Shown piece by piece: positions 55,693 through 58,200 of a stretch of DNA of 64,000 nucleotides; within the stretch, counting starts at the first letter, position 1, and each line of letters starts with the position of its first letter. The notes beneath the pieces are model-generated. The model searched no databases. It was not told the origin of the DNA and saw nothing but the letters and a program-made list of their open reading frames with translations. The stretch covers positions 471,587-535,586 of the forward strand of contig CAVWVI010000004.1 of NCBI GenBank assembly GCA_963758495.1, in the 5' to 3' direction. This DNA comes from Oligoflexia bacterium (GTDB taxonomy: Bacteria; Bdellovibrionota; UBA1018). Position numbers and translations under genes: made by a program.

Positions 55693-55900
55693 CTACACCG
55701 CAATCGGCGCAACAATATGCGGATGAGGATCATATCCCACGATCTCGAAATCATCGAACCTGTAATCGAAGATTGAATCCGGTTTTCGTTTGATCACCAA
55801 CTTTGGAAGGGATCGAAACTCACGAGTTAGTTGAAGCTTGGCCTGAACCAATGGTTAAAATAACATCCCCAGGTTCATATCCACACTGTTGTGGCCACCA
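55693..55900 (-). pseudogene. diverged duplicate of the 3' end of thyA (fragment)
   Basis: ~80% nucleotide identity by eye to 57367..57600; encodes in frame [53 protein letters not shown] then stop; upstream part out of frame. Confidence 0.6.
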
Positions 55901-55965
55901 TATAAATTCCAAATGAAAAACTCGCTTTTTATTATCAAACATGACTTTTTTGAACTTTGTGTGCT

Positions 55966-56157
55966 TCATTTGAGTCCCTCCTTCATCAGCTCTTTGAGAA
56001 TCTTCCGAATACGACGGTCGATCTTCCCTTCCATGAGCGTCAAGTGCTCATCGAGTTCAACCTTCGCGAGTAATTTACGATCCTTCAACACATGAACATG
56101 CCTAGGCGAATGATCGCCAACCCAGAACTCGAATAGATATCCACCACGTTCGTACAT
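55966..56157 (-). CDS. DUF4160-family small protein
   Basis: 63 aa with FEFWVGDHSPRHVHV motif. Confidence 0.55.
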   Translation of the reverse strand: MYERGGYLFEFWVGDHSPRHVHVLKDRKLLAKVELDEHLTLMEGKIDRRIRKILKELMKEGLK

Positions 56158-56195
56158 TAGTCAGTAATGCTAAAGTATCCCTTAGTCATATTCGA

Positions 56196-56681
56196 TTACT
56201 TAAAAACGCTCTCATCAGCCTCAAGGTGATAACCAGGTTGCATTTTTAGAAGCTCCAGTCGATTAGGTTTGACAGAAAAAATCAAGACATCTCGAACCAT
56301 AAGCTGCCCGTCATCAAAAGGCATAATCGCAACTTCTAAATTCCCATCCTGATTAATATCCGAAAAAAACTTTCCAGATTTAATTTTTAAAAAATAGGCG
56401 TAGTCCCATAAATTATCATACTTCTGCTCGTACTCCTCGGACCAAATTACTTTATTAATCAGTCTACCTTTACTATTCTTAATCTTTTTTCCTAAGATCA
56501 GTTTGGTCTTATGCTCATCTACTTTTTTTAACCAAATCCATCTATTATGGGGAAGCTTTAAAAAGTCTCGCCATAATGGCAGGCCAATAGTTTCATAGTA
56601 AGTTAAAGATGCAATGCTCTGGTGACAAAACAAAACTACTAATGCAAGAAAGCAGCTACTTCTTTTTAAGAGATTTTTCAT
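56196..56681 (-). CDS. hypothetical exported protein
   Basis: N-terminal signal-like segment CFLALVVLFCHQSIA; 161 aa. Confidence 0.4.
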   Translation of the reverse strand: MKNLLKRSSCFLALVVLFCHQSIASLTYYETIGLPLWRDFLKLPHNRWIWLKKVDEHKTKLILGKKIKNSKGRLINKVIWSEEYEQKYDNLWDYAYFLKIKSGKFFSDINQDGNLEVAIMPFDDGQLMVRDVLIFSVKPNRLELLKMQPGYHLEADESVFK

Positions 56682-57339
56682 ATTTAGAAAACACTTCTTT
56701 AGCGTATGCGTCGCCTTCTTTTTTCCAAGATTTATAATTTTTTATTGTATTGTACAGGCTCTTTTCAGCTTCTTTTGGAATTTTAGAGTATTTATGCCCA
56801 AGTAATCTTATCCCTAATGCAATATTTACCACCGGATCAAGTTTATCGTCTTTCTTTACATGAATAAGTGCCTTGCGTGCTTCGATATAATCATCTTTAT
56901 TTGCTCCCCCTCCCAAAATTCTCATCATTTGATCTGTAACCTGCATCAAGCCAGAAGCTGTACTACCTTTAGCTTTTGCATTGGGATTAAAAGTTGATTC
57001 AACTGCAATCAAAGCCTTAATCAAAAGAGGGTCTAATTTCTCAGGAAAGGCAATCCCCTCAAACTTCCAGTATTCAAGCCAAAATTGAATAAGCTCATCA
57101 TACTCTGCACCCTGGTTTCCATAACCATCAATGGGATTCAAAGCAGGGTATTTCTTCTTCGAGTTCCAGAAAAGATAATGAATATTATCTTTAAGAAGTC
57201 CTGGACTAATTCGACCTCGGTTCTTTCGAACATGCGCATGAACCCAAGCCGCAATGCCAGACTGACAAACTCGCTTGAATCCATGAACCACATGCGACCC
57301 TGGAGGACACACGAGTGTTGCATCTGGTTTTTTTAACAT
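56656..57339 (-). CDS. lytic transglycosylase (SLT-domain protein)
   Basis: SLT motif LIKALIAVESTFNPNAKAKGSTASGLMQV with catalytic Glu; 227 aa; no obvious signal peptide. Confidence 0.7.
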   Translation of the reverse strand: MLKKPDATLVCPPGSHVVHGFKRVCQSGIAAWVHAHVRKNRGRISPGLLKDNIHYLFWNSKKKYPALNPIDGYGNQGAEYDELIQFWLEYWKFEGIAFPEKLDPLLIKALIAVESTFNPNAKAKGSTASGLMQVTDQMMRILGGGANKDDYIEARKALIHVKKDDKLDPVVNIALGIRLLGHKYSKIPKEAEKSLYNTIKNYKSWKKEGDAYAKEVFSKYEKSLKKK

Positions 57340-57366
57340 GATTTTTATTCCTTTTTTATATCCATT

Positions 57367-58200
57367 CTACACGGCAATCGGCGCAGGAATATGAGGATGT
57401 GGATCATATCCCACAATCTCAAAATCCTCGAACTTGTAATCGAAGATAGAATCCAGGTTTACGCTTAATCACCAACTTCGGAAGTGGTCGAGGCTCCCTC
57501 GTTAGCTGCAGTTTTGCTTGCTCAAGATGATTTTTATAAAGATGTAAATCACCCATGGAAATAATCACTTCGCCGGGTTCAAATCCACATTGCTGTGCAA
57601 CCATGTGAGTAAGGAACGCAACACTGGCCGTATTATAACTGTTGCCAAAAATAAATCATTCGACCGAATATAGAGCAAACAGGAAAGTTTATTATTAGCT
57701 ACATAAAATTGATAGAGCAAATGACATGGTGGAAGCGCCATCTTTCCATCCGCAGCATTTTCCCAAGGTTTCTTTGTCTCATCAGGAAGATAAGCAACAT
57801 TCCAAGCGTGAAATAAATGTCGTCGGCTATCTGGACGGCTTTTCAAGCCCTCAATCAAAGTCGCAATCTGATCAATGTGACCTCCTTTTCCATCTGGCCA
57901 AAAACGCCATTGATATCCGTATACGGGTCCTAGCTCCCCTTCTGGAGTTGCCCACTCATCCCATATCTTCACACCGTTCTCTTTTAAATACTTGATGTTA
58001 GTTTCACCCTTCAAAAACCACAAAAGTTCATGAAGAATCGATTTCGTGTGAAGCTTCTTCGTCGTAAGCAACGGGAACCCCTCAGAAAGATCGTAACGAA
58101 CTTGTCTTCCAAAAACAGACAAAGTCCCTGTTCCTGTGCGATCTGTCTTTTCAGTTCCGTTTTTCAAAACATCATCAAGTAAGTCTAAATATGCCTTCAT
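57367..58200 (-). pseudogene. thyA: thymidylate synthase ThyA, frame interrupted by two single-nucleotide changes (true inactivation or sequence error)
   Basis: N-terminal 196 codons are clear ThyA (DRTGTGT, ALPPCH..QFYV); frame switches after SNDLFL near 57645-57651, next 62 codons are ThyA in the -1 frame ([12 protein letters not shown]...KLVIKRKP), original frame resumes near 57453-57458 for the last ~29 codons. Confidence 0.8.

Follow-up and report, generated by a model that had tools for sequence, protein, structure and literature searches.

A diverged second thyA 3' end in an Oligoflexia genome, thyA arrays in related Bdellovibrionota, and a possible mobile element that carries and targets thyA

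The thyA locus and the second copy of its 3' end

The locus described here lies in a 64,000-nt stretch of DNA (the window) from an Oligoflexia bacterium (GenBank assembly GCA_963758495.1, contig CAVWVI010000004.1, positions 471,587 to 535,586), in which thyA is followed at some distance by a second, diverged copy of its own 3' end. The genes concerned are all on the minus strand. The full-length thyA occupies 57367..58200 (834 nt with the stop codon; PF00303, E 5e-75) and is followed by SLT, a family-1 lytic transglycosylase of 227 aa without a signal peptide (56656..57339; PF01464, E 1e-12), by p161 (56196..56681), whose start overlaps the SLT stop and whose 161-aa product has a hydrophobic, signal-like N-terminus, and by a 63-aa DUF4160 gene (55966..56157; PF13711, E 1.5e-8) in a position that holds variable cargo. 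A first-pass annotation of the window had listed three same-strand genes of just these kinds between the two thyA copies, and its reading of the gene content was correct. Beyond them lies the distal thyA stump (55683..55901), and an intact folA encoding a 172-aa DHFR (47986..48504; PF00186, matched on the identical gene of the Logan assembly) forms the far edge of a variable thyA-folA interval, 9 kb downstream of thyA.

Comparison of the thyA region with the whole window by BLASTN returned one further match, made up of two segments: 57354-57520 against 55683-55845 (167 nt, 81.4% identity, E 4.7e-40) and 57551-57604 against 55847-55901 (55 nt, 76.4% identity, E 3e-4). A repeat finder agreed on the pair and gave a spacing of 1674 nt, and pairwise alignment showed that 29 nt are missing from the distal copy relative to the proximal one. 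The repeat of the thyA tail, first estimated at ~210 bp and ~80% identity with indels, is therefore real and far above chance. Its proximal copy, delimited by alignment, repeat finder and BLASTN, spans 57354..57604 (the thyA 3' end and 13 nt past the stop), and the distal stump covers approximately codons 190-277, with the 29-nt internal deletion, a stop codon at 55693-55695 and ~10 nt beyond it; the homology of both copies extends ~13 nt beyond their stop codons. As first noted, the distal copy still encodes the ThyA C-terminus in frame, which applies to the last 52 codons (ORF 55693-55851); upstream of the 29-nt deletion the frame is lost. The stump's left junction lies within a 49-aa fusion ORF (55820..55969, minus strand) that starts on the DUF4160 stop through an ATGA overlap and enters the stump. 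This ORF is likewise called on the Logan contig L001, matched no Pfam family, and may be a truncated partner gene of DUF4160. No third thyA copy and no folA fragment were found in the window.

Over the 52 codons in common, synonymous sites are saturated (dS ~1.0), whereas dN is 0.09 and omega is 0.09. These values imply that the copies diverged under purifying selection, as functional genes in separate lineages, and not by local duplication or as the arms of an attachment (att) site. The stump is the most divergent of 13 thyA 3' ends compared and carries replacements in the conserved REPRPLP motif, where conserved prolines are changed. With 80.7% identity to the neighboring thyA and 80.2% to that of the related contig L083, it is no closer to its neighbor than to the alleles of other organisms. 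We regard the distal stump as very probably a displaced earlier thyA allele, left behind when foreign DNA led by another thyA was inserted.

The same values bear on the alternative of a tandem duplication of thyA (or of thyA-SLT) in situ followed by decay, or of a mis-assembly of co-existing strains. The copies do stand head-to-tail, and Logan contigs from the same run (ERR11523676) break at 57381 and at 55782-55790, where the assembly graph is tangled. However, an omega of 0.09 with saturated dS is unlike the outcome of local duplication and neutral decay, the stump shows no special closeness to its neighbor, and contig L001, assembled independently and 100% identical to window positions 55782-57381, runs as a single molecule from the final codons and stop of the proximal thyA, across the three genes, into part of the distal stump. 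The same architecture also recurs across many unrelated assemblies, as described below, and we consider this origin extremely improbable.

The first-pass annotation had interpreted the repeat as the classic scar of site-specific integration into the 3' end of a gene. In that scheme, an integrative element with a thyA-like attP arm would have entered the thyA 3' end and restored the gene by means of that arm, the 210-nt repeat would represent attL and attR, and the integrase would have been lost. A direct repeat of a gene's 3' end does flank genes of low GC content (33-37% against ~42%), and arrays of 3' fragments, such as those of the relatives described below, resemble tandem islands at tRNA genes or rlmH. 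No integrase is left either, as had been stated: there was no PF00589 match among the ORFs scanned between 50 and 61 kb, and tblastn with four tyrosine recombinases found nothing in the window. The arms themselves are the difficulty. They have no identical core, the longest exact word common to both being 14 nt; they are 81% and 76% identical over 222 nt with a 29-nt indel; and dS between them is ~1. Together with the stumps of relatives, which start at codon 89 or ~171, this makes an att duplication very unlikely. A candidate integrase fragment at 52308-52526 (motif RHASVSTLMVYRD) was dropped, having no Pfam or PHROGs match at E 10 and no tblastn match with the four recombinases.

As assembled, the full-length thyA contains two frameshifts. 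Compared with seven intact relatives, it has a 1-nt deletion (-1) in a T/G run near 57645-57651 and a 1-nt insertion (+1) near 57454-57457, 190 nt apart, and three-frame translation splits it into fragments of 211 and 61 aa instead of one uninterrupted frame of ~277 codons. The reconstructed protein is 90-94% identical to the intact 277-aa ThyA of relatives. Both fragments are on record in NCBI/ENA and occur on no contig of the Logan assembly of the same run, which breaks at 57381 and 58510. Outside thyA the Logan contigs match the window at 99.96-100%, ~50 other window genes are intact, and long ORFs give a coding density of 0.65 between folA and thyA and of 0.94 and 0.90 on either side of that interval. 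Given this dense, intact coding and the Logan agreement elsewhere, sloppy sequencing is unlikely to be the source of the frameshifts; thyA has either become a pseudogene recently or been misassembled locally, in a region that varies among strains. The putative frameshifts, present in the NCBI/ENA assembly only, mean that thyA may be non-functional here. The Logan contigs L001, L002 and L121 end at 57381, 55782-55790 and 58510, in or beside the thyA repeats and just inside an upstream Fic gene, and these breaks hint at co-existing strain variants of the locus in the sample. A ThyA motif, GNSYNTAS, was considered as a sign of decay and dropped because the intact relatives share it.

thyA stumps and variable cargo in related contigs

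Contigs bearing related loci were recovered through homologues of SLT and ThyA. In this Bdellovibrionota clade, the genes normally stand in the order thyA-SLT-p161. L083, whose SLT is the closest to that of the window, is 77.5% identical to the window at the nucleotide level; its thyA is intact (277 aa), and SLT and p169 come next. p161 accompanies SLT in all of the recovered loci (L083-L102). Because thyA-SLT(-p161) is present in every close relative recovered, the earlier view of SLT and p161 as a foreign cassette bracketed by the repeat is not tenable. Comparison of relatives for the same genes without a repeat gave two cases. L089 and L090 together read p468-thyA-truncated SLT-unrelated DNA-folA, with no repeat. 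In L110, whose flanks match those of the window (GtrA, PAP2, EamA, p468, thyA ... folA), thyA is followed by mere remnants of SLT and p161, again with no repeat, and then by 8 kb of other genes. Such relatives, which keep SLT beside thyA without any repeat, also argue against an att duplication. An empty site free of the bracketed genes was not found among the close relatives, all of which keep SLT or its remnants after thyA, repeat or not. L110 also contains a 5' fragment of folA (aa 4-35, 62% identical; 18448-18543) located 190 nt upstream of its intact folA (18733-19224), which mirrors the thyA stumps at the opposite edge of the variable interval.

Other relatives contain stumps of their own, in arrays that include a short AT-rich segment, U, described in the next section (parentheses give thyA codons). 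L087, L095, and L097 read thyA-SLT-p161-RimJ-like GNAT-U-thyA(~171-277)-~85 degenerate SLT codons-HXXEE membrane protein-folA. A longer array, read from L099-L102 together with the shorter L103-L108 (ENA and Logan contigs of several independent assemblies), begins thyA-GNAT-GNAT-U-thyA(89-277)-SLT-p169-truncated SLT-p169-SAP/DUF6434-U and continues thyA(~171-277)-SLT-p161-OXA-like-U-thyA(89-277)-HXXEE-folA. The thyA-folA interval of relatives holds one to four 5'-truncated thyA stumps, each followed by different cargo (up to four thyA copies or stumps in L099-L102), folA being downstream of thyA arrays in L087, L099, L090, and L110, and the position taken by DUF4160 in the window is filled by GNAT, SAP/DUF6434 or OXA-like genes. 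The OXA-like cargo gene (L099 4320-5189; also L088 and L101), which sits on environmental Bdellovibrionota-like contigs, encodes a 289-aa class D beta-lactamase homologue with an STFK motif; NCBIfam class D models match it at E 1e-47, yet below their curated cut-offs.

The stumps of relatives begin deep in thyA, at codon 89 or ~171, and some run past the stop, through the intergenic region and into the degenerate start of SLT (~85 codons), neither of which is expected of att arms. Array units are mutually only 77-81% identical. The window stump and the L087 stump are 74-77% identical, which is below what each shows to other alleles; they are therefore not orthologous, and the events that produced them were independent and recurrent, bringing diverged alleles.

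The thyA alleles of relatives are also mosaic: in L095 and L102 they agree at 100% as far as codon ~170 and at 81% beyond it, and between L087 and L095 the identity rises from ~75% in the thyA 3' end to 100% at SLT codon ~5 and beyond. These breakpoints at conserved patches favor an explanation in which no recombinase takes part. Here thyA-linked DNA of related strains, either circularized or linear and anchored on one side, would be captured through homologous recombination in thyA and an illegitimate second junction, which would duplicate part of thyA and leave one copy truncated, and the recombinase found on one contig, L100, would be incidental. Capture of this kind would suit the variable stump starts (codons 89, ~171, and ~190) and the majority of arrays, which are without a recombinase, and the folA 5' fragment of L110 is the mirror image expected of one-sided homology at the other conserved flank. 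It is less readily reconciled with the constant end of U in relatives and with the gene order of L100.

A recombinase-small protein-thyA module and a proposed element

L100, of a strain type with data under ERZ28577229 and SAMN10254611, carries, in order, a tyrosine recombinase (PF00589, E 2e-10; at least 598 aa, truncated by the contig end), a 159-aa helix-turn-helix (HTH)/coiled-coil protein whose gene ends 3 nt upstream of the thyA start codon, a complete thyA (276 aa), two GNATs, U, and thyA from codon 89. The complete thyA is only 77% identical to the thyA it precedes. Exactly at thyA codon 88/89, the identity between L100 and L102 changes from 31% on the left to 100% on the right, and over the 4.7 kb that begin there it is 99.85%. 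In L102, thyA is intact and uninterrupted. L095 matches it exactly in the 5' half of the gene and in the DNA before it, and has ordinary chromosomal genes upstream of thyA and no recombinase of the L100 family there. At their right junction, L100 and L102 form an occupied/empty pair. The module lies exactly at the head of the L100 insertion relative to L102, which speaks against capture without a recombinase. An att duplication would place the recombinase behind a 3' arm, but here a complete thyA, start codon included, lies downstream of it. A full-length copy of the L100 recombinase, the 596-aa protein P0239, is encoded on an NCBI contig of 4,904 nt, and a truncated homologue of the small gene lies directly upstream of thyA in L083. 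A scan of viral contigs with the L100 recombinase gave no match.

The segment U was found in four diverged units of the relatives, where it aligns without gaps over 93 nt, has a GC content of 27-32% and ends in (Y)(R)GTAGTAYAAA. It abuts thyA at just two positions, codon 89 and codon ~171, both within the enzyme's most conserved motifs. Random illegitimate ends would not bring one 93-nt sequence with the same terminal nucleotides to two thyA positions in four diverged units, a second point against capture. A search with a U profile detected no U in the window, L083, L089, or L110. We also considered U as a degenerate 5' part of thyA and ruled this out, as its 43% identity to thyA codons 1-87 is at the random level.

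Searching 72,556 plasmids by tblastn with the L100 recombinase gave an end-to-end match (28% identity, E 4e-63) on the Pseudomonas putida plasmid pZXPA-20-602k, in which the catalytic R, HxxR, H, and Y are kept. The matching gene comes last in an uninterrupted row of three recombinase-type genes (368, 782, and 693 aa) and is followed by a 168-aa protein homologous to the 159-aa protein of L100 (E 1e-19). The stop codon of this small gene overlaps the start of the next, a 277-aa thyA with 70% identity to the thyA reconstructed for the window. This plasmid carries the full four-gene set in the order of the SE family of elements, discussed below. On p1_Teo6 of Pseudomonas asiatica, a truncated integrase, the small protein and thyA follow in the same order. 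These plasmid loci of recombinase module, small protein and thyA are L122/L123 (NZ_CP061724.1 69627-76489) and L124 (NZ_CP139777.1 91764-94413), and in both the thyA start overlaps the preceding stop. With L100 and the two Pseudomonas plasmids, the recombinase-srap-thyA module is present in three unrelated replicons, and its conservation from the plasmids to L100, with genes abutting or overlapping, weighs against the recombinase-free capture of thyA-linked DNA, which we judge unlikely, although to a lesser degree than the other alternatives. A weaker match, on pF061_1, is to the gene that takes the place of intB in a canonical intA-tfp-intB-srap module (373-686-623-156 aa) with cargo behind it. 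On the 602-kb plasmid, the cargo downstream includes chromate, arsenic, and fluoride resistance genes.

SE elements have the gene order intA-tfp-intB-srap (PMC10214605), and GInt elements consist of a gin operon, cargo that starts from the ginD stop, and a short AT-rich 3' end (PMC5385486). The loci described here resemble both in that a multi-recombinase core is followed by a small coiled-coil/HTH protein, cargo starts from the stop of the small gene, the distal end is short and AT-rich, insertion would be site-specific into few gene targets, and conjugation genes are absent; the homology of the L100 recombinase to intB-position proteins on Pseudomonas plasmids is a further likeness to SE. 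Of the four-gene core, the window has none, and L100 shows just two members, the small protein and the large recombinase, which the contig end interrupts. Joined SE ends have 13-19-bp imperfect inverted repeats and a 6-bp spacer, and GInts have 10-11-nt imperfect direct repeats and the AT-rich 3' end (PMC10214605, PMC5385486); four units of the relatives have the AT-rich 93-nt right end with its conserved motif, the left end being off the contig and nothing comparable being present in the window. For the target, the right junction of L100/L102 is at codon 88/89 and a second recurrent junction is at ~171, with the left side beyond the contig. What sets these loci apart from SE and GInt is a complete thyA with a fixed place directly after the small protein, and the apparent use of thyA itself as the target. 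Unlike SE, for which tfp-srap blocks were surveyed in Gammaproteobacteria only (PMC10214605), the host is a Bdellovibrionota lineage. The main texts of PMC10214605 and PMC5385486 do not mention thyA, and we found nothing specific in the literature on thyA as an att site or as SE/GInt cargo.

Three other systems offer partial parallels. The 65-kb island that splits tmk in P. putida KT2440 likewise interrupts a gene of dTTP synthesis expected to be essential, and one hypothesis tested for it was that an island-encoded kinase supplies the lost function (PMC10653934). That island is single and prophage-like and keeps both halves of its target, whereas here there are arrays with 3' stumps only, and the replacement is a homologue of the target.

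The SCC arrays at the 3' end of staphylococcal rlmH (orfX) are tandem cassettes at a housekeeping gene, with target repeats between them and many cassettes lacking a recombinase of their own. In those arrays rlmH itself stays in place and the repeats are short att cores at its very 3' end, in contrast to thyA stumps of 200-570 nt that start deep in the gene. Orphan rhs/cdiA-CT modules consist of a full gene followed by 5'-truncated copies, each with a partner gene, displaced by a new 3' module. There the tips are hypervariable and toxic and come with immunity genes, whereas the sequence of the thyA stumps is conserved (omega 0.09) and no function is evident for them. We found no variable C-terminus with an immunity gene of the rhs/cdi type at the thyA loci; the ThyA C-termini are conserved, and SLT-p161 and unrelated cargo follow downstream.

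In this Bdellovibrionota clade, the likeliest agent is an element of the SE/GInt/Tn554 type with tyrosine recombinases. It would have an intA-tfp-intB-srap core, a thyA translationally abutted to the srap-like gene, cargo, and the ~93-nt AT-rich right end U. Such an element would insert inside a resident thyA at conserved motifs (codon 89 or codon ~171), and its own thyA would substitute for the function lost. The element's thyA and the 5' stump of the resident gene could then undergo homologous recombination, which would remove the recombinase genes and leave thyA-cargo-(U)-thyA stump. This deletion would explain the 3'-only stumps, the recombinase-free arrays and the mosaic thyA alleles. Since each element would supply a fresh target, repeated rounds would nest, and arrays would grow between thyA and folA. 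In the window, the incoming segment would have comprised the complete thyA, SLT-p161 and small cargo, inserted into a resident thyA. The proximal, full-length thyA would accordingly be the incoming, element-borne copy. The window would represent one old unit, in which secondary deletions took U and trimmed the stump to a start at ~codon 190, and thyA later gained its two frameshifts.

Several points weigh against this element as the source of the window unit. Neither a recombinase nor a srap-like remnant nor U was found in the window, whose link to the element is one of shared architecture. The recombinase family is rare, with 5 homologues in 5.8 billion proteins, none of them on the source contig, and the recombinase is present on just one recovered contig, L100, whose left end is missing; with that end off the contig, no left junction, terminal inverted repeat or circular form was seen. 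The two U/codon-89 junctions, and likewise the two U/codon-171 junctions, could be inherited instead of independent. Ordinary homologous recombination explains the allelic patch of L087/L095 in thyA with no need for an element. On the Pseudomonas plasmids, thyA is carried but is not demonstrably the target, and we found no thyA stump on the P. putida plasmid (49 kb searched) or in a 15-kb region of the P. asiatica plasmid. On balance, judging from the architecture, we nevertheless lean toward the view that the window holds the decayed remains of an SE/GInt-like element that carried thyA and also targeted it. The suggestion of the first-pass annotation that the locus is a decayed scar of mobile DNA is thereby retained in part: foreign DNA was inserted at thyA, recurrently so in relatives and in one of them with a tyrosine recombinase, but the repeat is not an att duplication, and the complete thyA appears to be part of the incoming segment.

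More tentatively, the loci might represent an undescribed branch of SE/GInt-like elements in which thyA is a fixed core gene and the host thyA is the landing site, with recombinase loss turning the thyA-folA interval of Bdellovibrionota into an integron-like cargo archive, and with relatives on Pseudomonas megaplasmids. The archive might then hold, on the same tentative footing, peptidoglycan hydrolase pairs, acetyltransferases, an OXA-like beta-lactamase and parts of toxin-antitoxin systems. If the element model holds, SE/GInt-type elements, so far little studied, would extend beyond Proteobacteria, and an element that breaks a gene expected to be essential would bring a working copy and so recreate its own target. 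Cargo would accrete in tandem by simple means and without an integron integrase, the mosaic thyA alleles and the thyA-folA hot spot of the clade would be accounted for, and environmental bacteria of predatory type would be marked out as hosts of such arrays with OXA-like genes. Taken by itself, the feature in the window would amount to a decayed relic, and a possibly non-functional thyA would be its practical consequence.

Other features of the interval and its surroundings

SLT has ~100 homologues, and the named ones are labelled Bdellovibrionales or Bdellovibrionota. Its AlphaFold (AF2) model, with a pLDDT of 92.7 and MltE, MltF, and Slt70 as matches in the Protein Data Bank, allows the predicted fold to be assigned with confidence to the family-1 lytic transglycosylases. 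The catalytic Glu-Ser motif is invariant across 42 aligned homologues, and the N-terminus contains a conserved Cys/His mini-domain, modelled as a small four-strand domain. A homing endonuclease or intron, prompted by the recurrent breakpoints, was considered and dropped: the SLT protein matches lytic transglycosylases only, and there was no evidence of a nuclease. p161 had no match in Pfam, PHROGs, or NCBIfam. As a layout, SLT with a putatively exported partner resembles an effector-immunity or enzyme-inhibitor pair, a likeness of arrangement only. A second SLT-p162 pair, 54% identical, is located elsewhere on the 1.1-Mb source contig (L086, Logan ERR11523676; protein record P0074) and is followed by an AbiEii toxin gene, and in L084 a pair of the SLT-p161 type is followed by BrnT; such pairs tend to adjoin toxin-antitoxin genes.

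The 277-aa ThyA type of the clade is 83-84% identical to the ThyA of Porticoccaceae and ~75% identical to those of Ralstonia and Methylophaga. It is far closer to other taxa than is the DHFR: a folA scan of genome contigs gave no close relative of the locus among the matches listed, the best of these being 51-55% identical. On sequence comparison, the high similarity of ThyA across taxa is compatible with horizontal spread of this thyA type.

Upstream of thyA, a Fic/DOC-family gene (411 aa; 58453-59688) on the opposite strand, together with 250 nt of unique DNA, separates p468 from thyA. The p468-thyA gap is 36-40 nt in the syntenic L110 and L089, which indicates that the Fic region is a separate insertion. 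A perfect 51-nt palindrome at 58398-58448 (25-nt arms, 1 nt between) lies upstream of both genes, 4 nt from the Fic start and 200 nt from thyA, and contains in each arm two TTGTAGTA repeats, vaguely like the U end GTAGTAYAAA of relatives, a similarity that is not significant.

The ~7 kb between the stump and folA (48505..55682) are gene-poor and include partly truncated genes. They encode an AAA_14/DUF4143 ATPase, a 427-aa protein of no assigned family, a truncated regulator, an ArsR protein with two AHSA1 proteins, and a DUF983-like protein. By tblastx, the region from 48.5 to 55.7 kb has nothing in common with the relatives except a distant homologue of the ATPase elsewhere in L089. The segment 51456-51866 matches just the C-terminal third of a phage-type regulator family. 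The ArsR gene, the two AHSA1/START-like genes and the DUF983-like gene form a block on the plus strand, and between the second AHSA1 gene and the DUF983-like gene lies an imperfect inverted repeat (55162-55265) with 26-nt arms that are 85% complementary, a 52-nt spacer and GAAAC/GTTTC units.

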